From IMG/VR virus record IMGVR_UViG_3300020216_000014, positions 1 through 17,519 of that record: a stretch of 17,519 bases of DNA; one strand, 5' to 3'. The notes beneath the pieces were generated by a model that was not told the DNA's origin, did not search any database, and saw only the letters and a program-made list of their open reading frames with translations. The stretch comes from a virus. Below, one piece after another: positions 3,138 through 17,519 of this stretch (position 1 is its first letter; each line of letters starts with the position of its first letter). The position numbers and the translations under genes were made by a program.

Positions 3138-5441
3138 ATGCATACAAACAAATTACAGAAATTTATTAAAAAATATAAAAAAGAAAAAGAATTAAATTTG
3201 TTTGTAGATATCGAAACTTTGGGGTATAACAAAGAAGCCGGAAGAGAAAAACCCACCGAGTATAAAAATATGGTTTACAGTGTTGCCGTGTCTTTTTTTG
3301 ATGAAGATCAGTTAAAAGTGGAGGTTTTTCCCAATTTTAATTACTTTTTTGAATCGATATTTGATGGTTTAAGAAATGGAACGGGGATTATCTTTAATAA
3401 ATCACCTAAAATCAAATTGATTTATCATAACGGCAATAAGTATGATAATCACTTTATGCTATGGGATATCTTATACTACTATCCTTTTGTCAAACGTAAA
3501 AATTTATTTTTAAAAAATACAGAACATAATGATGATGTAGACGCCGAAAAAATTAAAGGTTTAAGTAAAGAAGAAAAACAAGGAATGGTTTTAGAAAGTC
3601 ACATTAAGTCAGCCAATAACTTAGAAATGACATTTTTTCTTTACGGGGTACAATTCGAAACCGTAGATAATTTTGTAAAAACAAGCGTAAGTTTAGATAC
3701 GCTAGGAAAAAAATTATATAATATTAATGTTTTAAGTGAAGATGATTTGAAAACGTCTTTTGATTATGTGAAATATGATAAAGATGAAGATATGACAAAT
3801 CAAGGTGCAAAGCAGTATTGTTTGAGTGTGTTTAATCACTTGAATGAATCAGAAATGACCTATATTATCAATGATGTTGTGATTTTAGGGTATGCCGTAA
3901 AATATTATAGTACCATTTTTTATGGATTCGATTATAACAAAATGACGTTTACCGCTAATATTTTAGATTATTACAACCAAAATCGATTGACTTCTTACCA
4001 ACTTTTGCATAAGTTTCCGCAAGGAAAAAAGACCACACACGTAAAATATACAGATTATCAATTTACGGGGTTAAATTTTTACGATTATTTAAAGCCTTTT
4101 TATCGGGGTGGGTTGAATTTTTATAATCAGTTTTTACGATCAAAGATTTTGACGAATGCGTTTAGCATGGACTTAAATTCTAGTTACCCTTATGTGATGT
4201 ATAACGAAAAAATACCCACATATCTATCCGACTATGAAGATTTTGGTGAAGAATCAGAAAAAATTGAGTGGAACAGATCGGAAGATTTTTTTTATTTGTA
4301 TCGTATGACCAAATGGGATTTTAATAACTTAGTGCTTGATAAGATCGATTCGATTGTATTAAGACAAATGATTGTTAAGTATTATACTACCAATGAATAT
4401 GTGAATATCAATGATTATACGTTACGAATTATTGAAAAAGTGACGGGAAACAAAATAAATTATATCCGTTGTTTGTCTTATGTTGGTTTTTCAACGCAAA
4501 GATTCGGTAGTCGGGAACAATTAGCGCATAACTATAAAATCAAATCAGAAGGCAAGCAAAAACAAGAAATGATTATGCATGATCCGTACACTTATGAATT
4601 TACGGAAAATGAAAATAAAAATTCGTTTAGTGCTGAAGAAATCAACAATTCGAAAGTATTATTAAATGGGTTGTATGGTATCCCTGCGCTACGCCCGTAT
4701 TATCATTTGTTTAGATTGAACCCGGATCATAGTTTTTATTCAATCCCGCAAGGGTTTAAAAATAGCGAACGTAACATTGTATTTAGTATATTTGTTACGG
4801 CAGTTGCTTTTTATAATTTGATTATGCCTTTGTCTTATCTCACACAAGATGAAATCGATCAATATTTTATTTATTGCGATACGGATAGCTTATATTTAAA
4901 AAAAGAAGTTTATGAAAAAATCCCAGCTGAAATTTTTGATCCGATCAAACTAGGGGCATGGGATATTGAACATGAAGATATCAAAAAAATGTATGTCTTA
5001 AATCATAAAAAATATGTCTACTATGCTGAAGATCAAATTCAAGTGGCTTGCGGAGGTATCCCACAAGATACCTTTGATAAGAATATGGATTTTGAAACTT
5101 TTGTTAATACCCAATTTAAACCCGGTATCGAAATCCATAATCAAAGATCCATTTTTAATAATCAAGGGACAATATCTATTTATCCAAGCACAACGTTATT
5201 AGATGAGGGAAGAAACTATTTTTCTTATTTCCCGTTAGATGAAGATGAAAAAAAGCAAGAAATTATAGAAGATATAAAGAAAACATATTACGATCAGGGA
5301 TTAGAAGAAACCTTATATTTTGAAACTGCCGTTGGTACACTATCGATAGATGATGTATTTCGAGAACCTGAACCCGTGAAAGGAAAGAATGATTTGTTTT
5401 TACTAGAAATTGTAGAAAATCATATAAAAAATGAAATATAG
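3138..5441 (+). CDS. Protein-primed family-B DNA polymerase
   Basis: Exo I is FVDIETLG (D24/E26), Exo II is HNGNKYDNHF and Exo III is YIINDVVIL. Motif A is DLNSSYPY (D345), motif B is KVLLNGLYG (K506), motif C is YCDTDS (D581/D583) and the KxY motif is HKKYVYY. Long spacers between motifs A, B and C are consistent with TPR-type insertions. Confidence 0.95.
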   Translation: MHTNKLQKFIKKYKKEKELNLFVDIETLGYNKEAGREKPTEYKNMVYSVAVSFFDEDQLKVEVFPNFNYFFESIFDGLRNGTGIIFNKSPKIKLIYHNGNKYDNHFMLWDILYYYPFVKRKNLFLKNTEHNDDVDAEKIKGLSKEEKQGMVLESHIKSANNLEMTFFLYGVQFETVDNFVKTSVSLDTLGKKLYNINVLSEDDLKTSFDYVKYDKDEDMTNQGAKQYCLSVFNHLNESEMTYIINDVVILGYAVKYYSTIFYGFDYNKMTFTANILDYYNQNRLTSYQLLHKFPQGKKTTHVKYTDYQFTGLNFYDYLKPFYRGGLNFYNQFLRSKILTNAFSMDLNSSYPYVMYNEKIPTYLSDYEDFGEESEKIEWNRSEDFFYLYRMTKWDFNNLVLDKIDSIVLRQMIVKYYTTNEYVNINDYTLRIIEKVTGNKINYIRCLSYVGFSTQRFGSREQLAHNYKIKSEGKQKQEMIMHDPYTYEFTENENKNSFSAEEINNSKVLLNGLYGIPALRPYYHLFRLNPDHSFYSIPQGFKNSERNIVFSIFVTAVAFYNLIMPLSYLTQDEIDQYFIYCDTDSLYLKKEVYEKIPAEIFDPIKLGAWDIEHEDIKKMYVLNHKKYVYYAEDQIQVACGGIPQDTFDKNMDFETFVNTQFKPGIEIHNQRSIFNNQGTISIYPSTTLLDEGRNYFSYFPLDEDEKKQEIIEDIKKTYYDQGLEETLYFETAVGTLSIDDVFREPEPVKGKNDLFLLEIVENHIKNEI

Positions 5442-10941: not shown

Positions 10942-11910
10942 ATGGCAAAACGATTTACAAGAAATATACGTTCGGTTGAAAATATCGAAAAACAGCCCAA
11001 ATACACAAATGAACAAAACGATTTACTATCAGATGATAAAGAAGTTTATATTCGTAACCAAGGAAAATATGAAAAAATCACAGGTAACGTTGAAAAAGTC
11101 AACAACAAAGAACCTGACGATAGCGGAAACGTTGAAATTGATACGGGTGTTATGGAAGTCAATGACCAAACCCCGGACGATAGCGGAAACGTTGAAATTG
11201 ATACGGGTGCAATGACGGTTAATGATGAAAAACCGGACGAAAACGGGAATGTAACAATTGATACTGGTACAATGACGGTCAATGAAGAAAAACCGGACGA
11301 TAAAGGAAACGTTGAAATTGATACCGGCGTGCATAAAGTCAATCAAGAAACCGCAGACGATAGCGGAAACGTAGAAATTGATACCGGGGTTATGCAAGTT
11401 AACGGAAAAGAACCCGATGAAGAGGGTCATATATTAATTGAAGCGTCTGACATACCAGATAACCAAAATTTAGCTAGAAAAGAATATGTAAAAAAAGAAA
11501 TAAGTAAAAGTTTATCAAAATTTGAAAATGAATATTTAGTTATGACCGATACTTTCGAAAATGCCTTTCCTGATAGAAAAAAAACTAGACTGCAATATGT
11601 ATTGCAGGGGAACATGATGCAAATCTTTGGATTAATCAGAACAAAAAAAGAACTAACAGGAAAAGATACCCACGTTGTTGCAAAAATCCCTGATAAATTT
11701 AATCCTATTATTGAGGGGTATAATTATGGGACTATGGGGTCAAGATATCATTTTAAGACCTATATTAATGAAAAAAATGATCCTAAATACCCTAATGAAA
11801 TAACCATTCGAAGCATTACAGATGTAGATAATCAATATGTAGATCTTTCAGCAGATGAACAAGGGGTTTTTCATATCAGTTTGACTATTGGGGTTGAGGT
11901 AAATGAGTAG
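10942..11910 (+). CDS. Fibre protein with tandem 20-aa repeats and a globular C-terminal domain
   Basis: 322-aa ORF. Residues 56-170 hold about 5.75 copies of x-x-P-D-[DE]-x-G-N-V-x-I-D-T-G-x-M-x-V-N-x. The stop overlaps the next gene's start (11903). Confidence 0.75.
   Translation: MAKRFTRNIRSVENIEKQPKYTNEQNDLLSDDKEVYIRNQGKYEKITGNVEKVNNKEPDDSGNVEIDTGVMEVNDQTPDDSGNVEIDTGAMTVNDEKPDENGNVTIDTGTMTVNEEKPDDKGNVEIDTGVHKVNQETADDSGNVEIDTGVMQVNGKEPDEEGHILIEASDIPDNQNLARKEYVKKEISKSLSKFENEYLVMTDTFENAFPDRKKTRLQYVLQGNMMQIFGLIRTKKELTGKDTHVVAKIPDKFNPIIEGYNYGTMGSRYHFKTYINEKNDPKYPNEITIRSITDVDNQYVDLSADEQGVFHISLTIGVEVNE
11107..11451 (+). repeat. 60-bp in-frame tandem repeat array (5 full units and a 45-bp partial unit)
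   Basis: Units are at 11107, 11167, 11227, 11287 and 11347, with a partial unit at 11407-11451. Units 1 and 2 share an identical 34-nt core, GACGATAGCGGAAACGTTGAAATTGATACGGGTG. A degenerate half-unit (GNVEKVNN) lies just upstream. Confidence 0.9.
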
Positions 11911-13651
11911 AAATTTAACAAAATTTCAATTTTTTAAAAATGTACCTTTGAATGATTTTCAAAATACCATTCATTTCAAATCAAATTCGGAACGTGACGA
12001 CTATTTTTTAAACGGTCGTCACTTTCCGAGCATTACATTTGATAAAGAATTTAATTGGGTACGTGATAAAAGCGAAGTGCAACTTCCTACGTCTTATGAA
12101 TCGATGGACGGGGTAAACTATTGCACCTTTTTAGACGGGTTTTCAAATCAACGGTTTTATGCTTTCGTGTTGGAAAAAGAATACATCAATGATCATGTAA
12201 CAAAAATGTACTTATTAATTGATGTATTAATGACTTACACACAAGGTGACGTTATCAAACAAAATGCCAAAAAAGTATTTATCAATCGAATGCATTACAA
12301 CAAAGTAGATTATAAGAAAAATCTTCATTATTTACGAAATAATGATGACGTTTTAAAAACAACAACAAAAAAATATATCAAATCGAATAGTAAGATCTTT
12401 AAAGATTTTTGGGTTTTAATGTTAGCTAGCGTGAATTTGCAAAAGGACTTCGGCGATGAGGACGACCCTAAAATGTCTACTTCTAGCGGAACAGTTTATG
12501 ATAATATCCCAAGTCCATTGAATATTTATATTGTGAGTTTAGATGACTTCCCAAAATTTATGCGATCCTTGTCTAACTATCCATGGATTGCGCAAAACAT
12601 TAATAAAAATTTTGTATTGCCAAAAGATATTGTATCTGATCGGTATTTTAATAAAGTCAATACCAAAGGCGACAACCCGCCTACGGTTTACCAAATTACC
12701 GGCAAAGGAAAATCTTTTGACGTCACAATCGATAGCATGGAACTTGATTTTTATAAACTTTGCAACATCTTCGGTTTAGATCCAGATACTGAGGGGCATT
12801 TATTAAGAAACGAGTATACCACCACTGAATTATATTCCTATGATGGGCAAAGAATTCTAATAGATAACGGGTTAATCAATCGTGATACCTCCGTTAAAAA
12901 TAAACTCCATGTCATGACTAACGCCGGTTATCATAACGAATTTGCTTTCTATTACACCAATTACATGCGCCAAACGAACGAAAGTCATGATACCGGCGTA
13001 AAAGACGGGGGGATGTTTTTAAATAATGCTATTGTTTGGAACACTTTTAATGAAATCCCTATGCTCATAGATAACTATCAACTAGGACTGGCACAAAACG
13101 CCCACCAAAGAGAACTAGCCGAGGACAAGCTATTATCTAGCCGGATTGAGGGGGTAAAAGATGAAGACGCCGACCCTAGAAGTCGCTTGATGGACGGTAT
13201 TTCTCTACTATCTAATGCCAGCCCCGTGAACTTTATGGGAAAGATTACTGATGAATATGAGTTTTACAGAACACAAAAAGCACAATTTAAAGACTTAGCC
13301 ATATCTTCACCAACCATTACCGCCCAATCAGACGCCAATTCATTTCAAATCGCGAATGATTTTTACGGGATAACAAAAAAACATGCGTTTTTAGACCCAC
13401 AGGAAAAACAACGTGTCAAACGTTATTATAATGCCTTTGGTTTTCAAGTCGAAGACTTTGGACAACCTGAAATTGAAACCATGACCGTATGCAATTTTGT
13501 TCAGTTTTCAGGAAATTGGGTGCTACCGAATATTGACCCTAATCTAATGAGTATCTTAAAATCCCAACTTGAAAACGGGGTGCGATTCTGGCATAATGAT
13601 GGGAGTAAAGACCCCTTGAAGCAAAACTTACTCACAAACAAATGGAGGTAA
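11903..13651 (+). CDS. Tail knob / distal tube protein, phi29 gp9-like
   Basis: 582 aa. The N-terminus (VPLNDFQNTIHFKSNSERDDYF...RFYAFVLEKEYINDHVTKMYLLIDVLMTY) and C-terminus (...YYNAFGFQV...CNFVQFSG...LKSQLENGVRFWHNDG) parallel phi29 gp9 segments from memory (WFYAFVTELEF...FEIDVLQTW; FFHKYGYKI...NYVQTKD...IFDNGITLWHTDN). Confidence 0.85.
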   Translation: MSRNLTKFQFFKNVPLNDFQNTIHFKSNSERDDYFLNGRHFPSITFDKEFNWVRDKSEVQLPTSYESMDGVNYCTFLDGFSNQRFYAFVLEKEYINDHVTKMYLLIDVLMTYTQGDVIKQNAKKVFINRMHYNKVDYKKNLHYLRNNDDVLKTTTKKYIKSNSKIFKDFWVLMLASVNLQKDFGDEDDPKMSTSSGTVYDNIPSPLNIYIVSLDDFPKFMRSLSNYPWIAQNINKNFVLPKDIVSDRYFNKVNTKGDNPPTVYQITGKGKSFDVTIDSMELDFYKLCNIFGLDPDTEGHLLRNEYTTTELYSYDGQRILIDNGLINRDTSVKNKLHVMTNAGYHNEFAFYYTNYMRQTNESHDTGVKDGGMFLNNAIVWNTFNEIPMLIDNYQLGLAQNAHQRELAEDKLLSSRIEGVKDEDADPRSRLMDGISLLSNASPVNFMGKITDEYEFYRTQKAQFKDLAISSPTITAQSDANSFQIANDFYGITKKHAFLDPQEKQRVKRYYNAFGFQVEDFGQPEIETMTVCNFVQFSGNWVLPNIDPNLMSILKSQLENGVRFWHNDGSKDPLKQNLLTNKWR

Positions 13652-13654
13652 ACC

Positions 13655-15460
13655 ATGGCAACAATTAAAGAATTTGCAAAGAAAAAAATTAATAATGATT
13701 TTGATCTAAGTGTTGATGATGTTGCCAAGCGATGTTACGATACCGGAAGATTTCAAGCCTACGGGTTAAGTAACGCGCAAGTAAAAAAAGTACTCAATGC
13801 GGTAAAAGATAATGGGATTAGTCCCGCGTTTTTTGCCGCCTATGAAGCTAGTGAGGGATATAACCCATCTTGGGGGTGGCTAAACCACACCACACCCCAA
13901 GGGAATTATTTAGAAGACGCCAAAAGTGTCAGCCGTTGGTTAAAAAAACAATCAAACGACATGAGCGGAAAACCCGCATGGATTGACTACGCCAACTATA
14001 AAGATTTTGTACCAGCCAGTGTCAAACAAAAAGGCAACAAAGATTTTAAAAACATGCCAAAAGGAACTATTGGAAGAGCTTACATTCCCGGTACAGCAGC
14101 CGCCACATGGGAAGTTTACTATCCCAAAGGACTAAAAGCTTCCTATAACGGGGTACAAAATTACGGCGCGCCTTTAAATGACGCCATGAAAACAATTGAA
14201 TATTGGGGTGGTAATATCGACAGCTCCGGGGGTGGTGATTCTGGTGGTAGTGATTCTGGAGGTGGTGATTCTGGGGGTAGTGATTCTGGAGGTGGTGATT
14301 CTGGGGGTGAAAGCACCACAATCACGGTCAAACCCGATCTATCTTCTGTCAATGATTTTTTTAAGAAATTCATTGATGATCTAATAAAAAAAATCAATAA
14401 AGAACTAAAAAAAGATATGAATCTAAAAGGGTTATCCAAAAATTTATATTCAAGTAAATATCTCATTATACAAAAACAATTAGATAACACCTACAAACCT
14501 AAACCCGGAAAAGCCTTTACGGATATGCTCAATAAAGCCAAAAAAGACGGTTCAAAAGAATTAAAAAATCTTGTCAGCAAGTTAGAAAAAGATAACACCA
14601 CAATCACGGTCAAACCCGATCTATCTTCTGTCAATGATTTTTTTAAGAAATTCATTGATGATCTAATAAAAAAAATCAATAAAGAACTAAAAAAAGATAT
14701 GAATCTAAAAGGGTTATCCAAAAATTTATATTCAAGTAAATATCTCATTATACAAAAACAATTAGATAACACCTACAAACCTAAACCCGGAAAAGCCTTT
14801 ACGGATATGCTCAATAAAGCCAAAAAAGACGGTTCAAAAGAATTAAAAAATCTTGTCAGCAAGTTAGAAAAAGATAACACCTACACCAAAGAAACCGGAG
14901 GTAGTGATTCCGGAGGCGGTGATTCCGGTGGAGGTGATTCCGGTGGCGGTGATTCCGGTGGCGGTGATTCCGGTAAAGGTTGGTATTTCCCTTACAAAAC
15001 TGACGTTTTAACGGTTACCAGTCCGCAAGGATATCGTTGGGGTCGTTATCACCACGGGGCTGATGTGGTCGCTGGTTCAGGCGGTGGAATTTATGCCATG
15101 CATTCTGGTACCGTGAAAATATCCGCCGAAAGTGTTCCCGGTTGGGAAGTAGCCGGTGCTATGATATGCATACAAAATGACAAAGACGACGGATACGGCG
15201 GGTTGTTCGTGCAATACGAGGAATTTGCACCCAATTCACGACTGGTTAACGTCGGGGATAAAGTCAAAGGCGGTCAAAGAATCGCTACATCAGGCATTAG
15301 CGGAAACAGTACAGGCGAACACTTGCATTTTTCCACCAATAAAAAAGGCAAATTAGTACCCGCCCGTCCCGGAAATTGGGAAACCGCATTAGACTGTATC
15401 AATTTACCCAATAAAGCAGGGAAATATAAACTGCCTTCAGGAATTAAAAAACCCGGATAA
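13655..15460 (+). CDS. Tail-associated peptidoglycan hydrolase, phi29 gp13-like (lysozyme-like N-domain and M23 endopeptidase C-domain) with an inserted duplicated module
   Basis: M23 motifs are HHGAD (15050-15064) and HLH (15320-15328). The N-domain (about 190 aa) contains YEASEGYNPSWGW, which is lysozyme-like by analogy. Two Gly/Ser/Asp linkers bracket two identical 94-aa Lys-rich modules. Confidence 0.85.
   Translation: MATIKEFAKKKINNDFDLSVDDVAKRCYDTGRFQAYGLSNAQVKKVLNAVKDNGISPAFFAAYEASEGYNPSWGWLNHTTPQGNYLEDAKSVSRWLKKQSNDMSGKPAWIDYANYKDFVPASVKQKGNKDFKNMPKGTIGRAYIPGTAAATWEVYYPKGLKASYNGVQNYGAPLNDAMKTIEYWGGNIDSSGGGDSGGSDSGGGDSGGSDSGGGDSGGESTTITVKPDLSSVNDFFKKFIDDLIKKINKELKKDMNLKGLSKNLYSSKYLIIQKQLDNTYKPKPGKAFTDMLNKAKKDGSKELKNLVSKLEKDNTTITVKPDLSSVNDFFKKFIDDLIKKINKELKKDMNLKGLSKNLYSSKYLIIQKQLDNTYKPKPGKAFTDMLNKAKKDGSKELKNLVSKLEKDNTYTKETGGSDSGGGDSGGGDSGGGDSGGGDSGKGWYFPYKTDVLTVTSPQGYRWGRYHHGADVVAGSGGGIYAMHSGTVKISAESVPGWEVAGAMICIQNDKDDGYGGLFVQYEEFAPNSRLVNVGDKVKGGQRIATSGISGNSTGEHLHFSTNKKGKLVPARPGNWETALDCINLPNKAGKYKLPSGIKKPG
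14228..14308 (+). repeat. Gly/Ser/Asp linker microsatellite 1 (30-nt unit, about 2.6 copies)
   Basis: GGTGGTGATTCTGGNGGTAGTGATTCTGGA is repeated from 14231 and encodes GGDSGGSDSG. Ser is coded TCT throughout. Confidence 0.9.
14314..14881 (+). repeat. Perfect 282-bp tandem duplication (2 copies plus a 4-nt CACC microhomology)
   Basis: 14314-14595 and 14596-14877 are identical in my block-by-block comparison. CACC at 14878-14881 repeats the unit start. The duplication is in frame and gives two identical 94-aa modules, TTITVKPDLSSVNDFFKKF...LVSKLEKDN. Confidence 0.92.
14897..14974 (+). repeat. Gly/Ser/Asp linker microsatellite 2 (15-nt unit, 5 copies)
   Basis: GGNGGNGGTGATTCC is repeated five times and encodes GG[SG]DS. 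Ser is coded TCC, unlike linker 1, so the two linkers are not recent copies of each other. Confidence 0.9.
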
Positions 15461-15475
15461 GGAGGTATACAAAAA

Positions 15476-15919
15476 TTGAATTTTTTTGATAGATTAAACA
15501 TCATTCTATCTTTTTTAGGTATATCCACCGGGTTTATATTTAAAAAGATATATCACTGGATTAAATTTCAAATAAAAATAAAAAAACAAAATGAAGAATT
15601 TTATAAAAAATTTGTGAAATCAACCAATAAAAAAAATGAAAAGCAAGATGAAGAAATCAAAAATATCCAAGATCATACACAACAAATAGAAAATGCCCAA
15701 TATCATATTTTGGAAAGTCAAAGAGTGATTTTATACAATCAAATTCGTGCCAAATCTAAAAACTTGATCAATCATGGATATATTACTTTATCAGATCTAG
15801 ACGCCTTAAATTTATTATACAAAAAATACAAAGAATTAGGAGGGAATGGCACAGCGGAAATACTTTATCAAAAAGCCATTTCCCTGCCTAAAAAAGGGGA
15901 TAGTGAAAATGTTCAATGA
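15476..15919 (+). CDS. N-terminally membrane-anchored protein, 147 aa (possible holin partner/antiholin; function unknown)
   Basis: TTG start lies 9 nt after AAGGAGGT (15459-15466). There is one hydrophobic segment (LNIILSFLGISTGFIF) followed by a charged, helical-looking domain. It overlaps the holin gene by 11 nt. Confidence 0.65.
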   Translation: MNFFDRLNIILSFLGISTGFIFKKIYHWIKFQIKIKKQNEEFYKKFVKSTNKKNEKQDEEIKNIQDHTQQIENAQYHILESQRVILYNQIRAKSKNLINHGYITLSDLDALNLLYKKYKELGGNGTAEILYQKAISLPKKGDSENVQ

Positions 15920-17399: not shown

Positions 17400-17519
17400 T
17401 CTACCTCCTTTCATTTGATCTATAATTAGTATAACAAAATATTCAGGATAAGTCAAGGATTTTTGCAGTAAAAATTTGGAGGAGGGGGGTTTGTGAATCA
17501 CGCACAAGATAGCACTCCA
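17400..17519. repeat. Right inverted terminal repeat (ITR-R), 120 bp
   Basis: Exact reverse complement of 1-120. Confidence 0.97.
17428..17456 (-). promoter_or_regulatory. Sigma-A-type early promoter inside ITR-R (mirror of 64..92)
   Basis: Same TTGACT-17-TATACT sequence with an extended -10, read on the - strand because it lies in the perfect ITR. Confidence 0.75.

Follow-up and report, generated by a model that had tools for sequence, protein, structure and literature searches.

We analyzed the 17,519 nucleotides (nt) of IMG/VR record IMGVR_UViG_3300020216_000014, the whole of which is called the window here, with a focus on a gene for a tail-tip lysin in which one domain is present in two identical tandem copies. 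As shown by a perfect 120-nt inverted terminal repeat (positions 1 to 120 and 17400 to 17519), the window is a complete linear phage genome of the phi29 type, 17.5 kb long and of the Rountreeviridae type. It is about 90% identical at the nucleotide level, along its length, to the Tetragenococcus phages phiWJ7 (LC644557) and phiYA5_2 (LC742552), two members of the Rountreeviridae that originate from soy-sauce mash. The lysin gene lies directly 3' of the tail knob gene, with a holin and a GH25 endolysin downstream (Table 1). An exact-protein look-up of the lysin and the knob found a sister contig (described below) as the sole match; the knob protein is identical in this contig and 94 to 96% identical in relatives whose lysin has a single copy of the domain. 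At the N terminus of the lysin is a glycosyl hydrolase (GyH) domain, for which the matches found by a search of the PDB with the full-length sequence span amino acids (aa) 4 to 212 (8ej5_A, E 1.4e-71; 6o43_A, E 7.8e-58), and PF21480 (PlyCA_N) is precomputed for the lysin of identical length of the sister contig. The M23 peptidase that the original prediction, an annotation made from the nucleotide sequence alone, had placed at the C terminus was recovered by Pfam.

Tandem Repeats Finder (TRF) reports a tandem repeat at positions 14314 to 14881 with a period of 282, 2.0 copies, 100% matches, 0 indels and a score of 1136, which bears out the perfect 282-bp duplication described in the original prediction. 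The repeat is in frame within the open reading frame (ORF) of the lysin, at 13655 to 15460, and gives two identical 94-aa units (aa 221 to 314 and 315 to 408) that are indeed rich in lysine, with 22 Lys among the 94 residues. The boundary sequences also agree exactly with the predicted CACC microhomology at 14314, 14596 and 14878: with a slash at the boundary, they read GAAAG/CACCACAATC, GATAA/CACCACAATC and GATAA/CACCTACACC. The junction between copy 1 and copy 2 is GAAAAAGATAA/CACCACAATCACGG, and a single-copy arrangement would run from GGTGAAAG through one unit to CACCTACACC. The duplicated segment begins two residues past the first of two flexible linkers (linker 1) and stops six residues short of the second (linker 2), so that it comprises exactly one folded domain, exactly in frame. 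The 282-bp repeat is, in short, an in-frame tandem duplication of the whole middle domain of the lysin. A chance origin was rejected, 282 bp repeated 2.0 times at 100% being beyond chance, and so was a non-coding repeat element, since the unit keeps the reading frame and corresponds to one folded domain. Two minus-strand ORFs inside the repeat (14491 to 14772 and 14161 to 14490) were discarded as by-products without homolog support, one of them being equal in length to the repeat unit.

Table 1. Features of the lysin locus in the window, with the evidence for each
Feature	Position	Strand	Evidence
Tail knob gene (phi29 gp9 / Andhra gp12 type), putative docking partner of the lysin	11903..13651	+	Pfam Caud_tail_N E 2.7e-31, phi29_gp9_C E 2.7e-11
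Gene for the 601-aa tail-tip lysin (GyH, linker 1, two middle domains, linker 2, M23)	13655..15460	+	ORF translation; PDB 8ej5_A "tail tip lysin (spike)" E 1.4e-71; Pfam M23; "peptidase" orthologs in phiWJ7 and phiYA5_2
N-terminal GyH domain of the PlyCA_N type (aa 1-190)	13655..14224	+	8ej5_A residues 7-216; 6o43_A (P68 Orf11) residues 7-199; phrog_5979 E 9e-65
Linker 1, Gly/Ser/Asp microsatellite, 30-nt unit x2.6 at 97% (or 15 nt x5.3)	14231..14309	+	TRF
Copy 1 of the 282-bp unit, predicted complete helix-sheet-helix knob-insertion (middle) domain, aa 221-314	14314..14595	+	TRF; jackhmmer domain E 2.5e-35; AlphaFold; Foldseek
Copy 2 (aa 315-408) of the 282-bp unit, with the same sequence as copy 1	14596..14877	+	TRF; diagonal scan; jackhmmer; two-copy model pLDDT 86.6, pTM 0.80
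Third CACC, 4-nt microhomology at the duplication end point	14878..14881	+	Boundary sequences
Linker 2, (GGDSG)n microsatellite, 15-nt unit x4.7 at 94%	14904..14974	+	TRF
C-terminal M23 metallopeptidase domain	14975..15460	+	Pfam PF01551 E 1.8e-14, aa 465-568; PDB M23 matches including LytM and lysostaphin

The lysins of phiWJ7 (503 aa) and phiYA5_2 (508 aa), with 94% and 89% protein identity, respectively, carry the 94-aa module once, between the corresponding linkers, and so do nine more alleles of the clade in public data (499 to 513 aa). Since the module is in single copy in all close relatives, what is peculiar to the lineage of the window is its second copy alone, and, judging from these alleles, the middle domain is ancestral to the clade and not an insertion. 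In the search of the PDB with the full-length lysin, a second but weak alignment paired the module with residues 218 to 311 of Andhra gp10, with motifs in common. A profile built with jackhmmer from the 94-aa module against 132 collected homologs (four rounds to convergence, Z=1e6) matches Andhra gp10 at residues 214 to 277 (E 3e-18) and P68 gp11 at residues 214 to 281 (E 6e-19), and in the alignment two amphipathic helices enclose a core that is conserved, G.S..f.N.yf.v.KTf.NTYKIKP. The AlphaFold model of one copy (predicted local distance difference test [pLDDT] 87.8; predicted template modeling score [pTM] 0.69) has a helix at residues 10 to 31, a three-stranded sheet and a second helix at residues 66 to 93; the original prediction had described the module as helical-looking. 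Among 350,542 PDB chains, Foldseek found 8ej5_A as the sole credible match to this model (probability 1.00, root mean square deviation 1.4 Å over 60 columns, TMq 0.58), the remaining matches having E values above 1.8 and deviations above 6 Å. On these sequence and model comparisons, the 94-aa unit is the conserved helix-sheet-helix middle domain of the tail-tip lysins of picoviruses, known from Andhra gp10 and P68 gp11.

This homology surfaced only through the full-length PDB search and the local iterative profile search: with the module alone, a word-indexed homolog search returned nothing, Pfam gave no match, and PHROGs gave one marginal match (phrog_25557, E 0.002). A search of BFVD added one unnamed match of 462 aa. 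An exhaustive profile search of 1.84e9 proteins found 77 representatives of the domain, nearly all in proteins of 440 to 520 aa with the domain at about residues 200 to 300, so that by its sequence distribution it is a small domain family specific to picovirus tail-tip lysins. The domain is present in 82 of the 132 homologs; the other 50, mostly of 331 to 413 aa, have a short architecture like that of phi29 gp13. The original prediction had regarded the module as a new functional element without assignable function, and this has to be given up: it is a known domain, found once in the close relatives and homologous to residues 211 to 277 of Andhra gp10. There is no new element in the domain itself; what is new is its doubling. 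Two homologs with other domain combinations were also seen, the 685-aa P0174, in which the middle domain and M23 follow a different N-terminal region (lysozyme/amidase-like, read by eye), and the 652-aa P0167, which has extra sequence (CHAP-like, read by eye) between the middle domain and M23. They suggest domain shuffling around a constant adaptor, and the other catalytic domains of P0174 fit a structural adaptor role for the middle domain.

In Andhra gp10, residues 211 to 277 form the "linker domain," a helix-sheet-helix that inserts into the tail knob. The Andhra virion has two gp10 chains at the tail tip, with the linker-domain helices forming a four-helix bundle in the knob hexamer and the beta-sheets penetrating the knob; the bundle docks the lysin and secures the channel loops by which the terminal protein and DNA are held back. 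The lysin of the window resembles Andhra gp10 (8ej5) and P68 gp11/Orf11 (6o43) in its PlyCA-type GyH domain, in the middle domain between two flexible linkers, in a gene adjoining that of the tail knob and, by prediction, in being a virion-borne cell wall hydrolase. It differs from them in having M23 instead of CHAP at the C terminus, and homologs of the lysin carry either PF01551 (M23) or PF05257 (CHAP) after a common N-terminal domain. It differs also in having two middle domains in tandem instead of one, each with a longer second helix. With a PlyCA_N-type GyH, a middle domain with flexible linkers, a C-terminal peptidase and a knob-adjacent gene in a linear genome with terminal inverted repeats (about 17 to 19 kb is the norm), the protein has every feature of the Andhra gp10 / P68 gp11 family of tail-tip lysins that can be read from sequence. 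A dimeric seat at the tail tip, with the middle domains in the knob, would be carried over by analogy from the cryo-electron microscopy of Andhra. One further difference concerns Andhra gp1, which forms a tip disc around the lysin: BLASTP and phmmer detected no homolog of Andhra gp1 / P68 gp2 in the whole genome, the ORF at 126 to 419 included. The build of the tip may therefore differ here from that in Andhra, or a gp1-like protein may have diverged past sequence recognition.

The original prediction had called the protein a gp13-like tail lysin. It does appear to be a tail-tip lysin, encoded directly after a phi29 gp9-like knob gene, and it shares with phi29 gp13 the location and function at the tip of a tail of the phi29 kind, the order of a glycosidase followed by M23, and a Gly-rich linker, but the proper comparators are Andhra gp10 and P68 gp11. 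phi29 gp13 has no middle domain and corresponds to the short architecture mentioned above, and instead of its single linker the window has two folded 94-aa copies and two linkers between the catalytic domains; no phi29 gp13 chain was found among the best 60 of the 74 PDB sequence matches at E<=1. The closest proteins are ORF16 of phiWJ7 and the "peptidase" of phiYA5_2, orthologs with the same domain order, linker-2 repeat unit and genome organization, but with one middle domain and no clean microsatellite in linker 1. In the literature that could be searched, no report of a knob-insertion domain in duplicate was found.

The two Gly/Ser/Asp linkers are microsatellites with different Ser codons, as had been proposed and as TRF and the sequence confirm: linker 1 uses TCT and AGT for Ser, and linker 2 uses TCC. 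Among 13 alleles of the clade, linker 1 varies from 18 to 37 aa and linker 2 from 11 to 30 aa; the sole difference between alleles P0126 and P0127 is one GGGDS unit, and the linker-2 DNA unit is common to phiWJ7 (3.6 copies), phiYA5_2 (4.6 copies) and the window (4.7 copies). This variation by whole units among relatives supports the idea that both linkers are prone to slippage. In many distant homologs one low-complexity motif is found on either side of the domain, the two being about 90 to 115 aa apart, and flexible linkers on both sides of it appear to be the norm in the family. A partial ortholog of the lysin, P0121 (MDN6580913.1), lies on a 2,319-bp contig of a Tetragenococcus koreensis metagenome-assembled genome (MAG) and breaks off inside linker 1; therefore, assemblies do break at this microsatellite. 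The binning of this phage contig with T. koreensis hints at the host.

The sister contig (L005; JGI 3300010165, Ga0136203_100232; 17,147 bp) is 99.93% identical to the window over 13.9 kb, and its end matches the terminal repeat of the window at 97.7%. It also encodes a two-copy lysin with the same junction. Between positions 3655 and 17519 of the window, the two differ by nine substitutions and one 1-nt indel. Two of the substitutions are in the tail fiber gene (K497T and G505A), three are in ORF 10942-11910 (S267A and two synonymous), and one, together with the indel, is in the non-coding region of the right end. The remaining three, all nonsynonymous, are in the duplicated module, where the sister lysin has a C-to-G change in copy 1 only (A295G) and a G-to-C change at the equivalent site of both copies (D277H and D371H). 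The polymerase, capsid and connector genes have none over the approximately 5 kb that was compared. This distribution points to pressure from the interaction with the host. The duplicated module has three of the nine substitutions in 4% of the length, for a binomial P of 0.005 (0.04 if the paired change is taken as one event). The paired change (D57H in module numbering) adjoins the nearly invariant N58 of the hairpin that would enter the knob, and its presence in both copies suggests gene conversion or turnover of copy number. The original prediction had held the duplication to be a very recent event. The identity of the two copies agrees with this, but the duplication is also present in the sister strain, which has since gained substitutions in it.

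Two other ORFs of the region deserve mention. ORF 10942-11910 contains a second coding tandem repeat (11095 to 11399; 60 bp x5.1, 76% identity) that gives five 20-aa units of the form VN.E.PDDSGNVEIDTG.M, whereas its homologs, ORF13 of phiWJ7 and that of phiYA5_2, have one 20-aa unit and another C-terminal part, with a small separate ORF downstream. An ORF of 147 aa (15476 to 15919), situated between those of the lysin and holin, has no Pfam match but is kept in phiWJ7 (ORF17), phiYA5_2 and the sister contig.

Internal repeats in the homologous proteins were sought by a diagonal scan, and a second case was found in L006 (JGI 3300020217), a contig of a distant picovirus with the same gene order (knob, lysin and holin), whose lysin is 35% identical to that of the window and whose nearest cultured relative is a Kurthia phage (41%). 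Its positions 2215 to 2895 hold a 339-bp tandem duplication (x2) of the middle domain with 96% identity and a 3-nt microhomology at the junction. The two copies have 12 differences, eight of them synonymous and the other four in two nonsynonymous codons, and all 12 lie in a 45-nt patch at unit positions 25 to 69, the remaining 270 nt being identical, a mosaic that suggests a patch of gene conversion or recombination. No further duplications were found among the 130 retrieved homologs, the 77 database-wide representatives and six IMG/VR loci, the last retrieved with the GyH domain as the query and all single-copy; extra stretches reported in the exhaustive search for P0132, P0140, P0173 and P0193 did not turn out to be further duplications. 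The carriers thus amount to 3 of the 82 domain-bearing homologs, in two lineages, and none of the 77 representatives. By these sequence counts, duplication of the middle domain is rare but has occurred at least twice independently.

The account we favor, and consider probable, is that of a real in-frame doubling of the knob-docking domain that was already shared before the split from the sister and that puts both halves of the plug on each chain. The 4-nt CACC microhomology would have been the site of the template switching or illegitimate recombination that produced the duplication, which would predate the split of the two sister strains and could have survived through the autonomy of the domain, set as it is between flexible linkers; separately, both linkers would change length by slippage of 15-nt units. 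The AlphaFold model of the segment with both copies (pLDDT 86.6, with five models at 83 to 87) has a pTM of 0.80, compared to 0.69 for one copy, and implies that the two copies adopt a defined mutual arrangement, not beads on a string. In the model the termini of the module are both at the end away from the sheet, and the copies are joined by about 10 residues (a coil at residues 94 to 103, pLDDT ~65), a length that allows the two copies to lie side by side. The simplest reading that the model suggests is an intramolecular pseudo-dimer plug: each chain would carry both plug halves, and the tandem copies would most likely pack so as to mimic the intermolecular bundle. One chain could then supply the whole plug, which would change the number or arrangement of lysin chains or leave a spare pair of domains. 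Alternatively, the extra pair could stack below the plug and lengthen the stalk by roughly one helix length.

Several points weigh against this account. The pseudo-dimer comes from one AlphaFold run, judged without coordinates or predicted aligned error, in which the alignment is essentially that of one copy, natural anchored fragments always aligning onto one of the two copies under MAFFT, and a Foldseek search with the two-copy model was uninformative. The Andhra tip map has a resolution of 4.9 Å, and the lack of a detectable gp1 homolog in this genome leaves room for a different tip architecture. Any effect of the duplication on infectivity would be hypothetical. Finally, the copy number of two is known from assembled contigs alone; the two that support it may come from related samples and one assembly pipeline, and the D-to-H change in both sister copies could be a consensus artifact.

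Of the other explanations, the one that survives best, though we find it distinctly less plausible, is that the duplication is real but a neutral or slightly harmful transient, in which the extra domain dangles unused and is later lost by recombination between the repeats. Its rarity in the family, the single copy in all six IMG/VR relatives and the identity of the copies, and hence the youth of the event, are what such a transient would leave. However, the allele has lasted long enough for two strains to diverge at nine sites, although a perfect 282-bp direct repeat would be expected to go readily if it were costly. L006 has likewise kept two copies, with eight synonymous changes against two nonsynonymous codons. 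The substitutions between the window and its sister also speak against a neutral state, being enriched in the repeat and nonsynonymous there, with most of the others in tail genes.

A comparable process has been described in the Enterococcus phage EfV12-phi1, in which in-frame tandem duplications arose in a tail fiber gene during experimental coevolution with the host (PMC6365445). Both cases involve perfect in-frame tandem duplication in a tail gene of a phage of a Gram-positive host, with variable copy number and recurrence. The unit of EfV12-phi1, however, is 1.8 kb long, belongs to the long tail fiber of a myovirus, contains no recognized domain and was selected by host resistance, whereas here a 282-bp unit corresponds to a single docking domain of a lysin; selection has been shown only in EfV12-phi1. 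A bolder extension, which we offer as speculation with the odds clearly against it, is that duplication of the whole plug domain is a recurrent, selected and reversible way of rebuilding the tail tip in picoviruses. A homodimeric plug of C2 symmetry would become a single-chain pseudo-dimer, with an altered stoichiometry or length, and the copy number would shift with the host envelope (capsule or teichoic acid).

We consider improbable the idea that the module is a novel spacer inserted in a phi29 gp13-like enzyme, whose copy number would set how long the tether of the M23 peptidase is or how far this domain reaches. It would accord with the empty Pfam and word-indexed searches made with the module, with the variable length of the linkers and with the extension of reach expected from a pair of domains stacked in series. 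Against it, the module is known and conserved as a domain, has a role in docking by the Andhra structure and is ancestral to the clade, the short homologs without it are a separate architecture, and AlphaFold places the copies in a fixed mutual arrangement instead of an extended tether.

Least credible is an assembly artifact, in which an assembler would have gone round a graph loop twice and the true copy number would be one or some other. Copies identical over 282 bp are longer than many short reads, the related MAG contig breaks inside linker 1 in a region hard to assemble, the window lysin is missing from the gene-position index, and the junction k-mer is in neither of two contig collections (these lack both contigs and are hence mute on its frequency), but such an origin is unlikely because a different contig, nine single nucleotide polymorphisms and one indel apart, has two copies with the same junction and a copy-specific substitution, while the new junction sequence must be in the reads to get assembled, the duplication is exactly in frame over exactly one structural domain, and the diverged duplication of the unrelated lineage could not be produced by a loop. 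Moreover, the usual error of assemblers with tandem repeats is collapse, not expansion.

Only one virion structure, that of Andhra, resolves the middle domain; there, no other part of the lysin is in contact with the knob, and the domain has been proposed to keep the DNA gate closed up to the moment at which the cell wall is penetrated. For annotation, a module without a Pfam entry becomes a definable domain family of about 77 clusters that is specific to picovirus tail-tip lysins. In practical terms, Tetragenococcus phages spoil soy-sauce fermentations, and the tail lysins of picoviruses are under development as antibacterials, whose engineering is aided by telling the anchor from the flexible linkers. 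As an experiment of nature on the tail-tip plug, the duplication is genuine and neat, and the natural two-domain allele, present in two unrelated lineages, offers a ready test of how a twofold plug sits in a sixfold knob, of the number of lysin chains needed per virion and of the trigger of ejection.

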